From Amoebophrya sp. A120 (lineage: Eukaryota > Protista > Dinoflagellata): a DNA stretch of 64,000 nt. A program made the translations under genes and the position numbers. Where the stretch lies: assembly GCA_905178155.1 (NCBI GenBank), contig CAJINV010000005.1:3757697-3821696 (forward strand). Reading direction: 5' to 3'. Below are positions 13,990 through 41,000 of this stretch, in pieces. Under the pieces are notes generated by a model. It made no database searches and was not told the DNA's origin. It saw only the letters and a program-made list of their open reading frames with translations. Numbering within the stretch: position 1 is the first letter of the stretch; every line of letters begins with the position of its first letter.

Positions 13990-15467
13990 TCTGACAGACC
14001 TGACTGCAACGGAATCGAAAGTTTGTGATTTGAATGTTTTTCAACGAAAACCAAGGAATATGGAGTAGAAACCTGACCTGCTCTTTCTTCTATTCGGTTG
14101 CTGCAGCGAAAATGGCGGTAAAAAACCCTCGAACAGGTCCACGCTCATGTCAATGAGGAAAAGAAATCAATAAAAACGCCCCGACCGCTGCACCAAACCT
14201 CAAAAAAGCAATTTGGGGTATTTGCGAGTATCAAAATTCCTCGGTGCACCAGCACCAGAATATCTCTCAAAGAGAAACTCAATTTGCTTGTTTCCGCTCA
14301 ACAACGTACTTGTTGCGTGCCCAAATCTAGGATGCCCTCGTGTTGCGCCCTCACCAACAAGAGCAGCCGCTCTTTTTCGGCTCGAGGATAAATGATGAAA
14401 CCATCAGTCATGCAGGGCCGGAAAGAACTTCAGAATAGCTCTGCCGTATCAGCAGTGGCAGTGCGGGAATCTTTTTCCTCGAATGCAGCGACCTGTCAGA
14501 CTGGATAACTTTTATGTAAAAAGATAGAAGAAAACGATAACTACAAATCCGCTTCTACCCCCTTCCAAACAAAGGCATTGGGAAGCAAAGGATGAGCTGA
14601 AGCATATATAACAGGCAGAAGTTGTCTTCCACGTCTGTGAAAAAATTCTATGCTACATGATCATGCTTGGCACAGTCTGCAGTAGTTGCGAGCGACGTTG
14701 CACTGGCCGCAGACAAAGACATGCGCCGAAGTTATAGCAAAACCCATCCGCGCCAGAAGGTCACGGAAGCTGCTCGCCCTTTCGCTCCACGCTCAGCAAC
14801 AGATCTGCACGCCACTCATCAAGGTCCCCCGAGAAACGCGAAGCAAGCTGCCACATAAATTGTATAATTGAGAACGCGCCTCGATCGTTGTCGCTTCGTG
14901 CACGGGGGTGCACCAGATTGGAGGACACAGGTCCGCCGTAAAGTCGCTTTGATGGTTCTCTCTGGCAGTAATATGATCTTATTCCGAAAGTGGCATACGT
15001 TGGTGGTAGTTGCCTGCGTTCACAGGTTCATAAGGATGCTCTTTCACAGGAGCGAGGCAATGTCTGTGTGCGTACTTTGGTGCGCCCTCGACTTACATAT
15101 AATCATACAATCCGACCTACAGTCGTGCAATCCTTTGGCGTACCCAGAAAATACTTAATCACACAGTCCTACACTCTAACAGGTAAAGATTGATTTGAAA
15201 ACTAGCTCTGGCAGCAACTACGAGATCGACCACAATTCTAGCGAAAGCGTAACATCATCTCGAAAGATGATAGTAGATAAGCGACGATTTTCACAGAATT
15301 CGAAGGACAAAGATGAGCAGAAGCATTTCAAGCAGGCAGAACCAGAATTCTATAGCACTGCTGTGATGTCTGTCCTCTGGCAATAAATTCTACACCACGA
15401 AATCATTATCGATCGCAGCTGTGCAGTAGATTTTCTCACACACGCAGGAGCACGGCTACTGGGTTCT

Positions 15468-20997: not shown

Positions 20998-25347
<4,350 letters not shown>

Positions 25348-26949: not shown

Positions 26950-29900
26950 TTACACCTGATTGTCGGCGGAAGCTGCGGCTTCCGTTGCAGCTGCAAGTTG
27001 CGGCGGAGCAGCAGCGGCAGCAGCAGCGGGAGCAGCAGCAGCGGCAGCAGGAGCAGCTTCGCCTTCCGCCCTCGTAACCGGTTTCTTTGCAGCAGCCGCG
27101 CCACCTCCACCAGCGAAGGGGCCCGCCCCCATCACCTTCAGCACGATGACAACGATCAGAGCGAGGCCAGCGATACCGCCGAGAATGATCGCGATGAGCA
27201 CACCGGTGTCCATGTCGTCATCGCTGGAGGAGGACGAGGTCGTGGCGGTGGTCGAACCGGCGACGGGCGCGGCGCCGGTCGCCGTGGTGGTGGGCACGGT
27301 AACTGGATTATGAGCGTGCACAGCGTCCCCCTCCCCCTCATTTGTATGGCATGAACAGCAACACAAGCAACAGCAGAAAAGGGGCTTTCGCATGACAAAT
27401 CAAATCTGCAGGCGGCTTGTAGTAGTACTATTTGAGGTCCCAAAATTTGTCATGCCTAACAGTGCTTACGGGCAAGGTGTGAAAAATGTGGTATTTTGCA
27501 TTACAAATGAGGGGGAGGCTGTACAGTTGTGCAGTCTCATACGGATCCACCGTGGCCGTGAAGGTGACGCCGGACAGGGCCGCATCGTTGGACAGCGCGG
27601 TCTGCAGCGTCGTTTGCATGGTGGCGGAGGCGAACGTTCCCGCGGTCCCCGCAGCCGTCATTTGCCCCTGCGCCGTTGCGAGGTTCGTGGCACTGTTGGC
27701 GTCCGCGTACAAGTTGAATGAGCCGCTCGCCCCGGCCGAGCTGGTCGTCAACTGCCGACGCAGCTGCTTGCGAAGTTCGCGGCGGGCAGCGAGCGCGCCC
27801 GTGAAAGCCACGTCCATTTCTGCGTAGATGCCGTTCTGGACTTGTCCGCCGGTGCAGGAGGCCAGATCACTGAACGTCTTGCCCGTACCGGAGACCGGCC
27901 CGCACATAATGCTCAACAACGTGGAAGTGATCTTGTTTTTGGCCGCGGTCTTCTGGGCGGCCGTCAAACTGGCGACATCCATCGCGAAGCTCATCGTGAC
28001 CGGGGTGGAATGGCGAGTGTAGCTGGCCAAGGACGTGGCGCGGTCGTACCCCTTCATCAGGTAGGCGGCCCACGTCGTCGTACCGCAGGCCTTGGCCGTG
28101 TGCCAGTTGTTCAGCTTGCTGGCATCAGCCGGGCACTGCGTGTCGTAGGGCGTGTTGTAGCAGTCGGGCGCGGAGCGGCAGGTGTCGTACGAGTACTTCG
28201 CCGCCGTGGAGCCCGCGAACACGGAACTGGCGATCCCGGTGGGGCAGCTGGGGTCCACGTAGCACCAGGGGACCTGACACCAGTTGTAGTCCTTGCTGCA
28301 CCAGCCCAGGTGGGCGGCCACGTCGTTCTGGGAAGCGGGGCAGTAGCTGTACCAGGGGGTGTCGGGCATCTGGTCCCAGGCGGCGCACGTGGTGCCGTAG
28401 TACGAGATGAATTTCAAGTTCTGGTACTGGCCCGGGTTGGAGGCCGGGTAGCTGCCGGTGATGGTCGAGTTGATTTTGTCCCCGCCGAACAGGCACGCAC
28501 AGGACCCGGCCTTGTCGTACTTGTTCGACTTGGTCCCGGTGGGGTCGTTGGGGCAGAACCCCGTCGCAGTGGTGGACGAGATGCCCGGCACGCTCGTGTA
28601 TCCTGAGTAAAAACGTCCCCACACCATAGTCAAGTTGGGGAATCGGCTAGACAAATCCACAAGCTTTGGCTGTTTTACATGACAAATTTGGATTCGTAGT
28701 GTAGTGCTGTTTGAGCTAGCTCAGCAGCATCACAGATCTAGCATACCATGCCGATTGGAGCATGACATATTGCAAAACACGATTGGAAAATGCTTCTCAT
28801 GGGGCTCCGCATGAGAAACATTTTCAGCATGCAGATTTGCATTACAACTATGGGGTGGGGACGTTTTTGAATAGGATATCGTGTAGCAATTGTTTACGCC
28901 GCAGGGGTTATGGCAGGAAAATAAAACTGCTTCAGTGATGTGAGGACTTTGGTGAAAATTTGCATGATAGAGACGACTTAGCTGTTACTTCACACATGAA
29001 GACAAGGACATTGATTCGCAAGGCTCTGAGACTTCAAACACAGATTCCTCGTCCGCAATTTTTATGCAAGTTTCAACAAGCGAAGCAGGTTTATTTTCGG
29101 GCGATAGGACTGGTACGAGTAAAATGCGAGGGGGGATCCCTGGAAGACGCTGCTCTGGACCCCCCACGTGCACGACTCGTCGGCGTAACACCAGGGCGAC
29201 GTGCACCAGTTGTCCGTGGTTCCGAAGTTGGCTGGCGTCTGGCAGTAACTGACCCACGGCGTGTCGGGCACGCGATCCCACGCCGCACAAGAGCTCCCGT
29301 AGATGCCGACGGCCCCATATGCACTGCGAAATTCATTTGTATTGCCGCACAGGTACAACTACAACAGGCACCACGAGCACGACCACATGATAGAAGTAAA
29401 TGCATCATAACAACATCACCTAAGGACTACCTAACAGCCGCCGCCCACTACGCGACTTGTCAGGCGAAACACGCTGCGACAAGCATCACGATCATCATCA
29501 TTGGCTGTGTCATGCGGATGAAACAGCATGTCAATGGAAATATGTAGTACAACGCCTACGCGCGGTGCGGTATAATATCAATAAATTTCCTTGAGATACA
29601 CCCAGGTTCTTGTACTGTCCCGGGTTAGTAATCGGGTACATGTCCAAGAACGCAGTGGTGTGGTTGGTGCCCTGCGCCTTGCAAGAGCAGTCGGAGAACG
29701 TGCCCTTCAGTTTGCAAACATGCGGCGTGTAGAACTCGTTCTCCTTCGAATCGTATCAAATGCAAATATGTCTGGGTCTGGAAAGTTTGTAATGCTAGCT
29801 TTCCATGCCTAGGAAATCTGTACTGCATAACCAACAAAAGTCGCGCCCTCTTTTGTACAGGCAAAAACGCAGTTTCTCATGCGGACTGCCTATGAGAAAG

Positions 29901-32900
29901 CGTTCTGGAAAGTTGTCATGCTGGGCTGCATTCGAAAGTGTTTCCATCAACCACATTTTAGCATCACAAGTTTCCAGACCCAGACATATTTGCAACGCAT
30001 AAATCGTAGGGGCACTTGGCCGCGTTCGCCGTCTTCCCCGCGGTGGTGTAGCAGTCGGGCGCGGAGCGGCAGGTGTCGTAGGAATACGCCATGGCCGTGC
30101 CGCTGCTGGCAAAGACCGTGGTGGAGATCCCGGTGGAGCACTTCACGGGGTCCACGTAGCACCAGGGAATTTGGCAGTAGTTGTTCCCCGCGGTGCAGAA
30201 ATCGGTCTTCCCGTCGGCGGGGCAGTACTGCTTCCAGGGGGTCCCGTATCGAAGAAAAAAACGGCTTAAGTCTAACTTTTTTGCGGGAACAGCATCACAG
30301 ATTTGTTTTGCATGACAGAAAACCTGTCATGCGCAGCTACTACGCGAAAACATGCATTGAAATAGCCTCTGATGCATATCCGGCATGACAAGCGTGACTG
30401 TATTGCAACGTCTGCAAGACAAAGTTACACTTACACAGTTTTTTTCGTGCGTATCCCGCTCACGCTGTCCCAAGCCGCGCAGGACGTGCCGTAGACCTTG
30501 ATGCTGGTCATGTTGGCAGGCGTATCCAAGAAAAAAAGTGCGTCAGGTTTTACAAAGACATGCTTTATTTGCAGTGATGCAGCAACACAGGCTTGGTCTA
30601 CTGCTCCGTGACAAAAAAAATCTGCAAATAAGTGCCGGAGAGCGCTTTTTCATTCAGGCAAAAGACAATGCATAAAAACTAAAGCAGGTGAGCAATTTGC
30701 GGTTTACGCATGACAGAGCGTGTCTGTCTTGCCGGCCCTAGTACTGCAGCACACCAGTCTGCTCAGCGTAATGCAATTTCGAGCCCGACTACAACAACTT
30801 TTTTCCTTCCATAGTAGGCACTACCGGTGTACAAGGCCGACGGCAGTTCTCCACCGATGTATTTGCATTCGCAATCCCCGGTGCTAGTGCCGGCGTTCTT
30901 CTTGTCCATGCGGTTGGACTGCGTGCCGGTCGGATCGTTCGGGCAGGTACCGAACCCGTCGGTGAGGGTCGAGTTCGCGTAGCAGTCCTTGAACCCGCAC
31001 GTCTGGTACGAGTACTTGGCCGCGGGGGAACCGGTTCCGGCAAACACGGAAGACGCCACCCCCCAGGGGCAGGTATCGTCGACGTAGCACCAGTATCAAA
31101 TGCAAACATGTCTGGGTCTGGAAACTTGTCATGCTAAAATGGGGATGATGGAAAAACTTCCGCATGCAGCCCAGCATGACAACTTTCCAGACTGCTTTTT
31201 CATAGGAAGTCCGCATGAGAAACTACGTTTTTGCATGACAAAAGTGGCTGCGTCGTTTGTTGCTTATGCAACACAGATTTCTCAGTAATGTAAAGCTAGC
31301 ATTACAAGTTTCAACTTTCCAGACCCAGACATTTTTGCAATGCATAACCACGGGTCAAAGCACCAGGGGTTCGCGTCGAGGGGGTAGGAGCTCTTCCCTT
31401 GACAGGAGCCCGCGAACCAGGGGGTGCCGGCGGTGTTGTCCCACGCGTTGCAGCTGGTCCCGTACACCTTGATCGACGCAAGATCCTTGTACTGCCCCGG
31501 CTGGCTGGTGGGAAAGTTCGTGTAAACGCTGCTGGCCAGCTCCTCCCCGTTGTATTTGCAAGCGCAGTTCGTGTACGTGGAGCCGCACTTCATCGGAGTG
31601 GCCCAACCAGACACGAGGGTCTTCCCGGAGTTCGGAATCTGCTTCAGATATCAAATGTAAAAATGTCTGGGTCTGGAAGAATGCATGTTTGTCATGCTTG
31701 TCTGGCATGACTCTCAAATCTGTAGTCATGCACGTGACCCCAGAGCCCCATTCTTCTGTGATGCAGAAACGCAGTTTGTCATGCAGAATAGGCAACACCT
31801 AGGACCTCAGAAACTTGTCATGCTGAGCCAGCATTTGTAGCCTCATCATGAGACGCCACCCAGCATCACAAGTTTCCAGACCCAGACATTTTTACATTTC
31901 ATATCAGCGTCGTCGCGTAGTCGAACGGGCAGTCCTTGATCTTTTTTCCGTTCTGGTTGTAGCAGTTCGGCGTGTCTTTGCACGTATCCATCATCATCAT
32001 CATTTATCCTGCACTAGGGGGGGGCGTGCGGAGGTTTGGGCTCGAGTTCGTTCAAGCTGCATCTCGAGGGTTTCTCACTGCAGCGTCGCACCTCGCTTAT
32101 CGTCGCTTACTAACATCAAGAAGTCTGAGTATCGAACTGCTCAACTCTCTTGAACATCACTGAAGTCGTTCTCTTCTTCTTCTTCGAGGATCGGATCGCA
32201 TTTCAGATCGAGCTTCTTCGTCGCGACGCACTTCTTCTCGTGCGTCTTCATGCGTCGGGACGCGCCGACCTTCTTCTGGAAATCGCGTGGCCAAGAAATC
32301 GAGTGCTCCGAGCAGTGCGGACAAGTCAGCTGTCGGACGCTGAACTTCGAAACGTCGCCACCGCTAAGAAACCGCTGCGGAGGAAGAACAAAACGCTGCG
32401 AAGGCTTGTATTTGTTCAGAATACACTGGCCCGATTTCCCGTACGCGTATTCCTCGGCCGGTGTGTAAGACCCGTCACGCTCACCGACGATGCGGACGAA
32501 GTCGTCCTCTTGATGCAGCTTGAGGTGGGCACGCAGGGCCCGCAAAGATCCGCCAAGCGCCGCCGCGCACTTGTTGCACCACAAAGCGCCAGCCCCGTCC
32601 TTGCAACCAGTATAAATCCCGCCCGATTTCCGCGCAAGGTCGTCCGTTTGCCGCTCCGAAATTTCTCCCTTCAGCACTGTCTGTTTCGCTCGTAACTCCG
32701 CCAAGCTCGGAGTGACTTTGAGGACCGCCCGCTTACTGCCGACGCGGCCCCGATCCCCATACGCCGAATCAAACTCCTCGCGCGAAATTCCGTTTTTCTT
32801 CAAAAGTCGCTCGTACGCATCTAGAACGCGTGCCTGCGATAGCGCGTCACGCCAGGACGCGAAAAACCAATGCTGCATCGTGGCATCGATATACCACGAC

Positions 32901-35134
32901 CTCGTGCGCAGGAACCAGTCCCTGCGAGTTTCCGGAACAGCAAACCCGGCGAGCTCCCGGACCGGAATCCGGGCGGCCGCGCACGCCTCGATGAAGGACT
33001 CGTAGACCGACGGTAGTCGCGATGGGCGTCGTGGCAGGAGGAACATTTCGGGGCTGCAATCCGGGGTCGTGTTGGGGTCCGCGGCGCTGATGATAAAACG
33101 GCCAAAAAACGCCTTGCGCGGCAGGTAGTCCCGGTCGCGCCGCAACAAATGCCCGCCGTGTGACAGCCTGGCATAGCCTATCTCCGCGGAGATCGGCGCA
33201 ACGCCGATGTGTTCCCGGAGGTCGCCATGCGAAACTTTCATGACCTCCATCTGGGGGAGGGACAGATTGAACAAACGCCGAAGGATTGCGTTGTCGGCGG
33301 CTGTCAGGTCACTGAGCTCCTGCGCCGAAAAAGACCGGCAATTCGCTCCATACAACATCGTACCGCGGACCAAAGCAACCACCACCGCGCGCCTGTGCCA
33401 TTTATTCAATTCCCCGAATCCGACCAACGCTGTTAGTGTTCAATTCCCCGAATTCCAAGAAAAAAACGCTGTTAGTGTCAATTTGTGATGCGCAACATGC
33501 AAAGTGATTGCGTCTGTCATGCTTGGCATGCATCGTGGGGTCCATTAAAGGGCGTTTTCACGTACTATCTGCGCATGACAGGTTTTTGCTGTCATGCCAG
33601 ACAAACTTGTAATGCTATTCCGCCAAAATAAAAGTTACACCTACAATGTTTTTTTCTTGGATAGCACGTGTTGTACGAATAGTACACGTCGGTGCTGAAA
33701 TCAGACTGCACTGCACTCGGGCAGCTGCTGTCGACGTAACACCACGGAGTCTGATTTGTTTGTATTTATTGACAGTGTGTTTTTATTATATCGCGCAGCT
33801 ACTGCTATTTGATGTTTAACAACATTTACATACTTGCATACACGATTTCGATTTGACATCCAAACCCCGACGTGACAGGCAACAACAATCCAACAACAAG
33901 AAGATTTAGTCGTTACAACAACGCAAGAACCAGATCATCACTAGATAGAACTAGAAACAGTATGAGTTATTCTGCTTATGCTATACCTGACACCAGCTGT
34001 TGTCGGAATGACAGAAATCCTTGCCAGAAGTAGGGCACGAGCCGATGTACGGGGTTCCTGAAGTTGTTTTCATATTTTTTCGCAAAAAAAAAACTTTCTT
34101 CTTTTCTGCCGTGCTGCTGCTCACAGCAACGGCTACATGATCTTGATCGCAGGCAGATCGCACTACTAACTTTTCGCAGCGTTGTCCTTCTTTTTCAGAC
34201 TTTCTCATCAGGTCTTTTACTCAGGACGATATTTCAAGTACTTACTAGAGAGACCACGCTGGTGGACCACAACAAGAAGAGCGGAATGGGTGGTCGTGGA
34301 CGAGAGTAAAAACAAGTATACCGGCCACGAAATCCCAGGCGGCACACGTGGTTCCGTACATCAGGTTCGAGGTGGTGTTCACCCGGCTCGCCATGGTTGG
34401 GAACGTCTCCAGAGTAGAGGTGGTGCTGTTGTAGTAGGCCCCGCCGAGGCAGGCACAAGAGCCCGCCTTGTCGACCTTGCCGCTGCCCGTGCCGGTGATG
34501 TCCACCGGACAGCCCGCGGACATCGGGCTGTTCGCCGCCGCCCAGCAGTTCAAGGTGCCGCACGTCTCGTACGAATAGTATTCCCCCGAGCCGGAAAACG
34601 CGGACGAAGCGATCGCGGAGTCGCAGGAGGGGTCCACAAAGCACCACGGCTGCGCCACCCAGTTCTCCGACCCCGTGAAGTTCGTCGCGTTCGCATCGTA
34701 GTACGGGGTATCGGGCAAGCTGTCCCACGCTGCGCACGCAGTACCTGATCATGATGTGAAGAGCTGCAGATCAATGTCTGATTTAGTTGTCTAGGGTAAG
34801 CAGCAGATGCTGGAGTGAGTACGTACAACCGATCGGAACTATGGTCCTCGGGGCATGCTGGTAAAATCAATGAAATTGTAAAAAAAAAATGGCCTCAAAT
34901 TAATATAGAGAATGGACGGAAGCATTCTCAAGCCGCTCCATTTCGTTGGAAACAATTACCGTAGAGCGAGATCGCCGCGGAGGAGTTGTGCTGTCCCGGG
35001 TTCGTGGTGGGGAAGTTGTTGTACGTGGTTGCCGGCAAGGTGCCTCCCGCGTACTTGCACTTGCACGCTTGCTTGATCCCGTACGCGCCGGCGGCGAAGC
35101 CCGCCCCGAGGACGAGGCGGAGCTTGTTCTTCAT
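26950..35134 (-). CDS. type I membrane surface protein with six Cys-rich kringle-like repeats, 14 exons
   Basis: signal peptide MKNKLRLVLGAGFAAGAYG; six repeats of YGTxCxAWD..GTPW...WC..PWCYVD..C...YSY.TC; Thr/Ser stalk; TM helix GVLIAIILGGIAGLALIVVIVL; Ala-rich tail; GT-AG introns 34745-34959, 34058-34321, 33751-33986 plus ten introners, all junctions in frame. Confidence 0.88.
27309..27541. mobile_element. introner (TIR TATGAG...CTCCCCCTCATTTGTA)
   Basis: imperfect TIR of about 40 bp; flanks TGGAT/CGGAT; removal gives TATVDP-VTVPTTT. Confidence 0.88.
28599..28878. mobile_element. introner, family A
   Basis: TATCCTGAGTAAAAACGTCCCCACACCATAG ... CTATGGGGTGGGGACGTTTTTGAATAGGATA; perfect TCGTG flanks; removal gives NNCYT-SVPG. 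Confidence 0.92.
28909..29106. mobile_element. introner (TIR TATGGCAGGAAAATAAAACTGCTTC)
   Basis: right end reverse-complements to TATCGCCCGAAAATAAACCTGCTTC; degenerate flanks GGGGT/GGACT; removing the element plus 5 nt gives YSYQS-CG, matching the repeat consensus. Confidence 0.82.
29318..29598. mobile_element. degenerate introner
   Basis: TAT/ATA ends; weak TIR (GAAATT.ATT..TATT..CCGCAC); flanks CCCCA/CACCC; removal gives QYKNLG-AVGIYG. Confidence 0.75.
29754..30001. mobile_element. introner, family B (TIR ...TGCAAATATGTCTGGGTCTGGAAA)
   Basis: 24-bp perfect TIR core; perfect AATCG flanks; removal gives KCPYD-SKENE. Confidence 0.93.
30247..30453. mobile_element. introner, family C (TIR TATCGAAGAAAAAAA...TAACTTT)
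   Basis: imperfect TIR of about 33 bp; perfect TCCCG flanks; removal gives WDSVSG-TPW. Confidence 0.9.
30523..30813. mobile_element. introner, family C-like, degenerate
   Basis: TATCCAAGAAAAAAAGT vs TATGGAAGGAAAAAAGT; flanks poorly matched, but removing the element plus 5 nt gives SAY-ANMTSIKVYG, aligning with YKDLASIKVYG in a sister repeat. Confidence 0.75.
31094..31346. mobile_element. introner, family B (opposite orientation to 29754-30001)
   Basis: TIR core ATGTCTGGGTCTGGAAA; flanks ACCAG/ACCAC; removal gives FDPW-CYVDD. Confidence 0.92.
31649..31903. mobile_element. introner, family B
   Basis: TATCAAATGTAAAAATGTCTGGGTCTGGAA with a near-perfect inverted copy; flanks TCAGA/TCAGC; removal gives YATTL-KQIPNSG. 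Confidence 0.92.
31985..33663. mobile_element. introner, family C, interrupted by a LINE insertion
   Basis: perfect GCACG flanks (31980-31984, 33664-33668); right TIR is the reverse complement of TATCCAAGAAAAAAAC; left TIR split into TATCCA (31985) and TCCAAGAAAAAAAC (33454); removal gives YSYNTC-KDTPNCY. Confidence 0.88.
31991..33453 (-). mobile_element. 5'-truncated non-LTR retrotransposon, RTE-like
   Basis: ORF 32141-33427 matches the post-RT region of RTE-clade ORF2 (MLYGANC...ILRRLF...RLSHGGHLLR...LPRK); CxxC...HxxxH and CxxC...HxxxC fingers; (ATG)n tail at 31989-32003; TCCA on both sides; RT core absent. Confidence 0.85.
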
Positions 35135-36099
35135 TTCGATTCCCATGTCAAAGACGGATCCGCTTGACGCCGTGCGGTCTTTTGCTTTGATGTTGGTCCG
35201 TTTTTATTTATTTGCGCCTGGTGTGTTTCTTTAACACTTGGACTTGGTATAACTGTATTAGAAGCGATCTGGTTATTTTTGACCAGCTTCTTGTGTCTTT
35301 TTAGTTTTAGATTTGGGTTAAGGTTGTGAGTTAGTATTTGCTTTTGCGCGTAGTTCTAGTACTCCTAGCCGTTCTTGACAAGACTGTACGTCCTTTTTTG
35401 CTTCTTGTGAGGGTAGTGAGTCGCGAAGACTACAAACGCGATATTAAAGTGGAGTGCTTGGGCGTCGTGGAGTAAACCCGGTAGGGTTGCTCATTGACAC
35501 TGTCGGGACGATGGAAAGCCTCACAATAACAGTATTAATTTATGCTACAGGGGGTGTAAGGCTTACGCTACGAGGCACACATCGCGTTGCACATAACGAG
35601 CACATGGCTAAGGACCGAGCGGTGTAAGTTTTTCACGACACCGAGCCGGCCACACCTCGTGATGGTGATGTTGACCGACGTGCTTCACGTATGTCTAAGA
35701 ATCTCACACCGACGCATCTATACTTCGTTCCTGATTTACATCTAATTGCGTACCAGCCGCGGGGCGCACGATGCTACGCGACTTTTTGTGATTTACTTTG
35801 TAGTTTCCATTTTCTACGACCGACGTTGACGGAGGGACCGACGTGGCTTCTTCGGCACGCACCGATTTCGCATTTCGATAACTACGAGAAGTTACTACCA
35901 TTTACCGAGCAGCTACTTTGAGTTACACTTACGGAGGCCGGCGAAGATTCGGTGCAAGCATTTTGATATGCTGGCACTTTTCGAACAGCTACAGTTACAG
36001 AAGTAGACTCTACAAAAATATGAAAAACAAGGCATGGAGGCGCGAGCAAAACAACCACTGCAACATAATCACGAGTACCACCGGAACAGGGAAAACGCT

Positions 36100-38036: not shown

Positions 38037-41000
38037 TCACTCAACACCCCCTCCAGCACCAACTCGAATCTCACACTTCCTCACCACCTCCTTTCCAAAC
38101 ACATCCGCAAGTCTCCGTGGCCCGTCACTCGGCTCGTCGCTGCCGTTGAAGTCCAGACTTATCAAACTCAGGTCTGCATCGGCGTTTCGGAGGAAGTAAA
38201 TCCGTTTTTCGGGAGCATCAAGTTCCACCAAAGCTCTCTCCTGACCAGTCCGCACGCGATCCGTTTCCTGTTCTTCCCCTGTTCTTCCAACCAGCAGCAC
38301 ACTCTCCTCCAACAACAACCCCGCTTGAAACACTTGTCGCAAGTACTGCACGACTTTGCTGCTTTCCGCGGCCGCGCTGGAGAGGTACTCCTGCAAATCC
38401 GCGCTGGTGATGCTTGAATTTGTCTTCTCCTCCCCTTCCGCGCCCGAGACGACGCTTTTGGGCGTACTGGCCCCACCAGCGGATGAAGTCCTCGCGGTCT
38501 TCACTTTGTTCTTCGAAGCCGCTATCTCTTTCAAAATCCCCTGCAAAAACGGCGCGCGTTCGGCGGTGGACGTTGAGGAGCGCTGTGTAGTACTAGCACC
38601 ACAATCCACTTCGGTAGAAAACACCACTAGCATCTCCTGCAAGAACGACAAATCGTCCATGGTTTCCGGGTCCCGCCCGAGCCACCACATGCTGTAATCC
38701 TCGTTCCAATAGATTAAGTTGTCTTCCGACCGATACACCGGCTTCTCCGCCCACATCTCGTTCTCCTCCTGTCGGTAAACGGCGTTGAAGCACGGGAAAT
38801 TGCGGATCTCCACAGCACTTTGCAACAATGCCGTAGTACCAGAAGACGACGACTTCGGGTGGCTCTGCAGTTCGAATTCCTCCTCGATCCTCAAGGATGG
38901 ATTTCTCATGCTGCTGATCGCGTTCGACACTGCAGTTGCGCCACTGTTCACCGCCCCGTGCAACAGTTCATTTGTCGTCGCGGAGCTTGTACTGTCTCGA
39001 TTGGCAGCAGCTCCTTCCGTGAGTAAACCTAAAGACACACTCTGCACACCATTCGGGATCGTTCGGTCAAGGTCGTTGGAGCCGATCCTGTTGGTGCTAC
39101 TGGTCGAGGATGAACCGCTCTTGTCTACAACTTCACCGTTCCTGTACTGCTCCGCAGGCCGGTGAATCAAAGGCGGCTTGGTCGAAGCGGATGATCTTAC
39201 TCTGTTCATCGCAGCACTTTCTTTCGAGTAAGCCGGATGCGTTGAGGAGTCGAAGGCTGTGGAAGAGGCTATCAACTGCAAACATGTCTCGGTCTGGGAG
39301 ATTCCGAAATTTGTCATGCTGTTTTTCCAAGATCCACCAAATCTAGAAAGCAGTGCCTAGCATCACAGGTTCTGCAGCCCCCTTGCGATGCCTATTCTGC
39401 ATGAGAAATGGCGTCTCAGCATGGCCACAAATGGACAGCTTTTGCAAGTCATGCAACACAGTTTTTTGTATGATTCGCAACATGCATCACAAGTTCATCA
39501 CATCCTTCCAGACCCAGACATATTTGCATTTGATAGCGGCGGAGATCGTGCGATGTTGGGAAGTAGTGCCTGAGCTGATCGTGCGAGCACCGCCGGAACC
39601 TTGTATTTGGTCATCCTCGCCGCCGGACCTCAATCGGTAAAACGGGTCCGGATCGGCGTAGTAAATCTCGTCCGGGCTGTTCCGCTTCGCTGGTAACGCC
39701 GGGTTGAGCAGCTTACTGCCCGACGGACTCTCTAGCAGGCGTTGCGTTTCTTTCACCTCGAGTCGCTTTATTGATACTGAGGGTCTGGTGGAGGAGGTGT
39801 TTGGCGATGCATTTCTCGCTTTGGCTTTATTCCCGCCGGATGCGCTAGAGGAAGTAGCGGCATTCGCATTTCGCGACGAAGATGAAACTTTGCTAACATA
39901 GTTCATCGACGAACTACCACCATCGTTCGACGTTTTCTTCACGGCCACACTCGATCGCGCGTTGCGGATTCCCCTACTGGACGCACTCTGACTACCCCCC
40001 GGAAGATAAGGGCCACCGCCGCGGCCGCTTTGACTCCCGCTGCTTTCCGGCGAACTTAAAAGCTGCGGTAAGGGGGAAACGGGCGGGGAGGCCAGTTGCA
40101 CGAAAGAGGTCGAGTTCGTTTTCCGAAGTAGTAACTTTTCATCGTCAAACTCCCGCCCTGCGTACGCCGGCTCTTGCAACTCCTCTCTCGATTTTTTCTT
40201 CTGGAACTGCATCAACTTCGCCACTCCGTGCCGGCTGTGATTCCGGTTACTATTTTGGTTGCTCTGATGTGAAGTTGACCCTTTTGACCCGGCGTCGCTG
40301 GTGAATGTCGAGCTTCCTGGCACCGGGCGCCCGACGTGGTCAAATTCCAACTCTTCGGGATCATCCCGGGCGGAGAAGGAGTTGATGCTCGAAATCGGCG
40401 ACGCTTTGTTCATGTCCGAGAACCGAAAACCGCCGGAAGAGTTATTTAGTAACCCGCTTGTATTTTTCGCGAATAGAAACTCCGTGTCCGGGTTACTATT
40501 GTTCATCACACCGCCGGAAAAAGACTTCAAGTGGTACTCCTCATCCGCAACAGAGGTTGACTGCGGCGTGGCGAGAAGTTTGGTGTTGCCAAACGGAATG
40601 TAGGTCGAGCTGTCCTTGCTGGTCTTCGGCAAACCTGGTTTCAAAGAGGCGGAGGCTGAGGCTGATCTGGTCGAAGACTCGGCCGGCGGCGAGGGATCGG
40701 GAACAACTCTTTTTTGGCGTAGTTTTTGGTGATCCTGGTTCAGTAAATTCGCTGCCTCTGTTGCGGAATGTGGTCGTGCTGGCGCGTCGTGGTCTAAAGA
40801 TATGCAACTCCCGAGGAGCTCCTCTTCCAGCGAGTCTTCCTCTTCCAGGTAGTCGGCGTGGAAATAGGCGTTGTGATTCTGATGTGCACTGGATGGCCGT
40901 CCCGAAGCGGCGGGCGGTAGATCCTGATAGCATTTTTTTTCTCATAGTCATATCATATCGCATGATAAAAGACAGTGGGTATGTTGCAAGTGCTTCGTTT

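Follow-up and report, generated by a model that had tools for sequence, protein, structure and literature searches.

Which part of a transposon-derived intron tells the splicing machinery of the dinoflagellate Amoebophrya sp. A120 where to cut: the direct repeat at its borders, the letters at its ends, or the arms of its terminal inverted repeat (TIR)? How A120 splices without conserved end letters or a detected U1 small nuclear RNA (snRNA) has been unanswered since 2021, and the direct repeats mask the true borders. We analysed a stretch of 64,000 nucleotides of contig CAJINV010000005.1 (positions 3,757,697 to 3,821,696; the window), in which a 5'-truncated long interspersed nuclear element (LINE) of 1,463 bp (31991-33453) splits the TIR of a 212-bp introner of the A120 type. 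By parting the stem from the direct repeat the LINE removes the border ambiguity, without frame selection on the result. Introner and LINE are of known kinds; the new part is the proposed splicing rule, which places the cuts 1 nt ahead of the TIR and 4 nt past it. We consider it reasonably probable that splicing measures its cuts from the paired TIR arms, and not from the direct repeat or the terminal letters: the 217-nt introner part is lost from the RNA and the LINE is kept.

In transcript order (minus strand; the direct repeats, the hexamer, the introner body and its relative are listed without strand) the locus contains: the upstream exon (33665..33750, 86 nt in the RNA contig, from contig coordinates and bin depth), the upstream copy of the direct repeat GCACG (33664-33668, of which 4 nt stay exonic and 1 nt is removed), the main body of the introner (33454..33663, 210 of 212 bp, defined by sequence, pairing and fold z-score, with a TIR stem of 14 out of 16 pairs), the LINE insert, the leftover TIR hexamer TATCCA at the native 3' end (31985-31990), the downstream copy of the direct repeat (31980-31984, from sequence) and the downstream exon (31904..31979, intact by gene model mapping). 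The letters TCCA are duplicated, within 31985-31990 and at 33454-33457, where the remaining TIR follows; the far TIR end is 33663. An earlier note, made from the sequence alone, had described this nesting, and coordinates, the two TCCA copies and the length of the insert agree with it. Subtraction of the insert leaves the 212-bp element that the note had likened to a 207-bp copy (30247..30453), and 152 of 215 aligned columns are indeed identical (71%), with the relative in opposite orientation. The flanking exons are intact, as had been said, and their joint frame is in phase if all 1,684 nt are removed. It is also true that only six bases of TIR still abut the direct repeat at the native 3' end, but the inner arm continues to pair with the far TIR.

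The split introner follows the pattern given for A120 introners, i.e. TAT, seven variable bases and an A-run (Farhat et al. 2021, PMC7789003), whereas TIRs of A25 start with TTA: it has an inverted repeat within 8-20 nt, formed by TAT, seven variable bases and at least three A. The direct repeat matches in 5 of 5 positions at its native ends, and not at the 3' end now used. The element is repetitive: in X1, a DNA contig set, the summed depth reaches 31,291 in bin 33484-33687 (unique pieces have 41-45), a value that is not a copy number. A piece of X1 covers the 5' junction of the LINE (33182-33509) with 0 differences and a depth of 45 (other unique pieces 41-45); X1 may itself be the source of the assembly, and no listed DNA piece spans the 3' junction of the LINE. 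Four of 11 listed runs were compared with the locus; of the raw-read runs, X9 gave 10 partial reads, all on a repeat, and X10 gave none.

RNA at the split introner

The contig set X3 was taken as cDNA; none of the listed runs is recorded as RNA, and the RNA status of X3 is a guess based on three GT-AG introns that are missing from it, two of which are retained in an X1 piece. In record 12 of this set (2,406 nt, depth 59.7) the upstream GT-AG introns are absent; the record carries two upstream exons, followed by 156 unlisted bases and by 33447-32062, the last with 0 differences. An exon model in which 34056-33987 and 33750-33665 are joined to 33447 reproduces its length exactly (2,406 nt). The same model matches the depth to rounding in 14 of 30 bins, including the exon bins at 18.4 and 20.5; the remaining 16, into which repeats or other contigs fall, all lie above the model and none below it. 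The depth over the LINE equals that of the exons (59.7), and one upstream intron bin has depth 0. The product predicted from the joint 33665|33447, 270 aa long, is identical letter for letter to the annotated protein P0035, which was fetched afterwards.

The removed segment (33448..33664, minus strand, 217 nt) has non-canonical ends and can slide by one base (33449-33665). Its length is that of the intact intron (212 + 5), and the LINE is retained. The new 3' end has no direct repeat (1 match in 5). The cut ignores both the direct repeat and the leftover hexamer; it lies 4 nt past the position of the inner TIR arm. Neither allowed placement ends in AG, and the segment is not a canonical GT/GC..AG intron. 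The earlier note had reasoned that, should the whole 1.68-kb intron still be removed, the terminal hexamer and the direct repeat would be enough. This outcome is not supported: no spliced form was seen other than the one that loses 217 nt and retains the LINE, in agreement with the public gene models; the YNTC-KDTP junction, which the note had proposed to look for, occurs in neither of the two gene models found (P0035 and P0044). What came about is the alternative that the note had allowed for, mis-splicing, with record 12 losing 33448-33664 only. The locus is thus the valuable natural experiment that had been claimed, with an outcome opposite to the one hoped for.

Cut register across the host gene

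When P0035 and P0044 were mapped on the window, 13 introns were obtained: 3 with GT-AG ends and 10 with TIRs. In all 10 TIR introns the element plus 5 nt is removed (the length of the split element being counted to where its inner arm would end), and the flanks match in 1 to 5 of 5 positions. The number of bases that may be removed before the TIR is 1 or 2 at the LINE junction; at 30813 it is 0 or 1 by protein and only 1 by contig, where a piece starts at 30815 and the bin depth of 8.03 corresponds to 17 nt; at 29106 it is -1 to 2, and at the remaining seven introns 0 to at least 5. The sole register common to 10 of 10 is 1 nt before and 4 nt after the TIR. At this register the end letters vary, the first base being A, C, G or T and the last two GG, TG, CC, AT or CG.

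The second informative intron (30519..30814, minus strand) consists of a 291-bp TIR element plus 5 nt. Its flanks match in 1 of 5 positions and its cut has a single possible placement, at which 1 nt ahead of the TIR and 4 nt past it are removed. The flanking repeat is here shifted by 2 nt from the TIR and the cut tracks the TIR and not the repeat, which makes it a second natural experiment. Of these two, the LINE junction weighs more: its product is truncated in any case and the allele draws no benefit from the cut, which makes selection for frame an improbable cause of the cut position. Two other placements were tried and rejected: removal guided by the direct repeat at 30523 would lose base 30815, which is present in the contig, and a cut flush with the TIR start gives C and not W at residue 256 of P0035, while the contig piece starts at 33447.

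Some further regularities of these elements were noted. Between 27304 and 33668 the base directly after the 3' TIR is never G at the native ends (10 of 10). In all three cases of an upstream 5-mer that begins with G, the downstream copy carries T or C instead; an initial C (5 of 5) or A (2 of 2) is kept. An unspliced X3 contig of depth 5 crosses a TIR intron (29284-29628); it may stem from a retained intron, from pre-mRNA or from background DNA. Scanning the 64-kb window loosely for TIRs yielded 14 candidates, against 2-12 in 10 shuffles, which is weak by itself, and the scan missed the element at 29318-29598 that was added via gene model mapping. Other TAT-type TIR elements in the window are found at 14091-14262, 21419-21789 and 39270-39535, with flank matches of 3-5 of 5.

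What may set the cuts

The predicted pairing of the 5' arm with the inner arm comprises 14 of 16 pairs (-22.6 kcal/mol), compared with -11.8 for the next best site and -7.5 for the native end, and its predicted probability in the whole 1.7-kb span is about 1.0. The removed segment folds with a z-score of -5.75, and none of 200 shuffles is as good. Our conclusion is that the TIR arms determine where the cuts fall, most probably by forming a stem, in which case the direct repeat and the last two TIR pairs would be dispensable. The LINE would have entered the TIR 2-6 bp from its border, through target-primed reverse transcription, leaving an inner arm whose sequence keeps 14 of the 16 pairs with the far arm (folding predicted). 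In the contig and the gene model the cuts lie 1 nt ahead of the 5' arm and 4 nt beyond the would-be end of the 3' arm (or both one base upstream), the latter in foreign sequence. The same register may hold for A120 introners generally, removing exactly one 5-nt target copy whatever its letters. As catalyst a U1-less spliceosome seems likelier, with a separate nuclease-ligase as the alternative. More tentatively, A120 may remove its tens of thousands of transposon-derived introns by a sequence-blind machine that takes a terminal RNA stem as its reference and cuts 1 nt ahead of it and 4 nt past it, a generalisation that we hold to be possible and do not yet favour.

Several points weigh against this account. 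The register is pinned down by just two of the 10 junctions, with a third compatible with -1 to 2 and the other 7 able to slide; the joint 33665|33447 was derived by arithmetic on contig pieces and a gene model and not observed in individual reads; the gene models are transcript-based and may share the RNA of X3, so that they bear out the arithmetic rather than being an independent replicate of the biology; the RNA evidence comes from a single contig set, and contigs lose rare variants, so that a minor whole-intron isoform is possible; the pairing of the stem is predicted, not probed; and several TIRs pair poorly at positions 3-10, which would leave the linear U-tract as a potential ruler. On that last point rests the main rival, in which each end is recognised separately. 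A protein would bind TAT plus the A-tract on the 5' side and, in a divergent U2AF-like role, the U-tract on the 3' side; the cuts would follow at a set distance and the pairing would be incidental. The A/U tract is the best-kept part of the arms, mismatches are frequent at positions 3-10, and the U-tract stays with the inner arm, so that the same cut is predicted; moreover, divergent U2AF paralogues have been reported to help in recognition of non-canonical 3' ends in a tunicate. However, arms of different families share little sequence and yet pair within each element, some arms have a short U-tract only, and the removed segment folds far better than its shuffles. We regard such a linear ruler as rather unlikely, though it is the alternative to be taken most seriously.

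The other explanations carry much less weight. If all 1,684 nt were removed via hexamer and direct repeat, if only in a sizeable isoform, the frame regained would agree with the sister repeats (YSYDTCRSAPDCY in P0044), and rare forms may be hidden by contigs; but record 12 continues from the exon into the LINE without a break, whose depth is that of the exons with an empty upstream intron bin, and neither gene model has the junction, which makes this improbable. We give slightly less credit still to a library artefact, in which reverse transcriptase skips a hairpin and the 217-nt gap is not splicing at all. The segment is a strong predicted hairpin, and all RNA evidence consists of cDNA contigs or of models built on them. 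Template switching, however, usually needs a direct repeat, and only 1 of 5 letters matches at the joint; the skipped form also dominates the contig, and nine other TIR introns need removal in vivo for an open frame of 920 aa. An assembly chimera or mis-join appears least credible of all: no listed DNA piece crosses the 3' junction and the G-run at 32017 differs among contigs, but an X1 piece crosses the 5' junction without differences at single-copy depth, an RNA contig connects the LINE with host exons, P0044 extends over the 3' junction, and the duplicated TCCA fits an insertion. Excision at the DNA level, as in ciliates, was rejected, X1 pieces crossing the element borders at single-copy depth.

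Measurement from the TIR arms by a rule of 1 nt before and 4 nt after, with no need for the direct repeat, is testable genome-wide on existing RNA reads. Such a rule would correct annotated intron borders and bears on how a host may tame a transposon invasion by a changed splicing machine. If true, it would explain why an insertion that duplicates 5 nt, whatever its kind, arrives as an intron ready for removal.

The LINE, its host gene and known systems

The LINE proper (31991..33427, minus strand) is 5'-truncated, represents the C-terminal part of open reading frame 2 (ORF2) in the same sense as the host gene, contains a stop at 32141-32143 and is kept in the spliced RNA. It ends at 33427, where the match of another genomic copy (X1 record 7) ends too. 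The 26 bases beyond (33428..33453, minus strand) combine a copy of target 33465-33478 with a copy of LINE 33405-33419, provide the letters of the new 3' splice site, and probably reflect template switching at insertion. At the other end a tail of five ATG units (31989..32003, minus strand) lies in frame with the downstream exon and holds the start of P0044. During insertion the ATG tail would have paired with the target, about 4 bp would have been duplicated, and two template switches would have occurred at the LINE 5' end. The target duplication starts with T, 9 nt from the start and 3 nt from the end of a run of seven T (a single site). Between 32016 and 32092 one X1 and one X3 contig have three extra G in the G-run (32017) and others have small insertions, which represents an error in the window or other copies. 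The summed depth at the LINE 3' end is far above that of the LINE body, and short 3' copies may be common. The earlier suggestion that this LINE family might prefer introner TIRs was followed by a metagenome scan for its 3' end, which gave one locus, a short copy with the same ATG tail (L001, 1994-2150, on a metagenome contig) outside any TAT-type TIR; a single locus is too few to judge a preference.

The minus-strand frame of the insert (432 codons) aligns over 414 aa, at 53% identity, with residues 927-1340 of P0002, a 1,367-aa A120 protein with an RVT_1 domain (E 9e-11) and 8 matches to solved structures, mostly L1 ORF2p and R2. Several hallmarks of a LINE are found: reverse transcriptase homology via P0002, 5' truncation, a 3' tail and a short target duplication. 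The 432-codon frame itself has no Pfam match, and a Pfam search of full-length P0002 gave no endonuclease match; the APE-type endonuclease motifs that P0002 may carry were judged by eye. Its distant relative P0041 carries Exo_endo_phos. A search for reverse transcriptase homologues recovered 3 distant matches without clade name and no close relative of P0002 outside this organism.

The host gene (26950..35146, minus strand) encodes a cysteine-rich repeat protein and is now annotated as two models, P0035 (35146-33405) and P0044 (32003-26953). Its product, which is hydrophobic at the N-terminus and in a segment close to the C-terminus, is likely a membrane protein. One exon of the gene is 100% identical to a protein attributed to Amoebophrya sp. 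A120. The repeat (CAAWD..PWCYV..YSY..C) corresponds to no Pfam family and may resemble kringle domains; nine relatives of 543-1,806 aa were found. The LINE divides this one gene into two frames and supplies the start codons of the second. The first stops at 270 aa (P0035), at a premature stop 14 codons past the new junction (33402..33404, minus strand), and the second, of 920 aa (P0044), starts at the ATG tail and reads through the hexamer, unused as a splice end in the forms seen, and the direct repeat. The ancestral product would have measured about 1,170 aa, with 255 aa from P0035 and 914 aa from P0044, a size similar to that of the relative P0036 (1,183 aa). The allele, now predicted to give a 270-aa piece and a 920-aa frame without hydrophobic N-terminus, is likely a broken gene. 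The early-stop transcript is the dominant contig (depth 60), which suggests weak nonsense-mediated decay. At 31989-32010, which includes the LINE tail, the X3 depth is 96 downstream and 60 upstream. A C-rich tract plus CAG just upstream of the ATG tail (minus strand) could be a trans-splice acceptor. X3 record 11 has 117 nt beyond 31643, a length that 31904-32020 fits, or its last 12 nt could be a spliced leader joined at CAG.

Compared with other non-LTR retrotransposons, the LINE resembles the RTE clade in 5' truncation and in a tandem 3-nt tail with microhomology to the target. Its short duplication starts with T close to a T-run and may fit the insertion signature described for that clade, in which a stretch of T lies some 10 nt upstream of a duplication whose first base is T (PMC6007223). 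The label RTE-like, which the earlier note had used, is therefore plausible from tail and target, the tail not being diagnostic. In contrast to the clade, the A120 parent P0002 lacks a close relative outside the organism in the homologue search and a Pfam endonuclease match, and membership of the clade is putative.

With the introners described for A120 (PMC7789003) the split element shares the TAT start, a 5-nt direct repeat, a length of about 210-290 nt and non-canonical ends. That work reports most spliceosome parts as present and U1 snRNA as undetected; it gives the border as unknown and the sites as variable relative to the hairpin (Fig. 3 legend), at 1-5 nt in the legend of Fig. S23. Here, two junctions that cannot slide give one register, and the direct repeat is not needed. 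The accessible text of Farhat et al. (PMC7789003) holds no case of a LINE nested in an introner, and no title or abstract in the literature searches pointed to a published A120 register or nested case, with figures S19-S23 of PMC7789003 as material that could bear on the register. Stwintrons and twintrons (PMC8469720) likewise have an element inside the splice signal of an intron; in A120 the LINE is not spliced out first to restore the outer intron, being retained in the spliced contig, and the outer intron re-forms a shorter unit. The introns of Fritillaria borealis (PMC11282704; 10.1101/2025.08.15.670264) are also derived from miniature inverted-repeat transposable elements with TIRs and target-site duplications and handled by an altered machine, but they prefer AG-AC and AG-AT ends, whereas the A120 end letters would vary freely at the register proposed here.

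The closest parallel is found in the nonconventional introns of euglenids (PMC12501133; PMC11282704), which share non-GT-AG ends, paired ends and fixed stem-to-cut spacers, and whose register was likewise found from introns that cannot slide. In Euglena these introns carry CAG at +4 and CTG at -8, with spacers of 3 and 5 (PMC12501133; PMC11282704). The split introner was not classified as a euglenid intron because it has neither the CAG/CTG motif nor these spacers: A120 has TAT..ATA with spacers of 1 and 4, its 3' ATA can be lost, and the lineage is unrelated. Fixed spacers from paired ends are nevertheless found at the 1/4 register (fixed by 2 of 10 junctions, with pairing predicted), and, if true, this would represent a second, independent origin of Euglena-like, structure-measured splicing.
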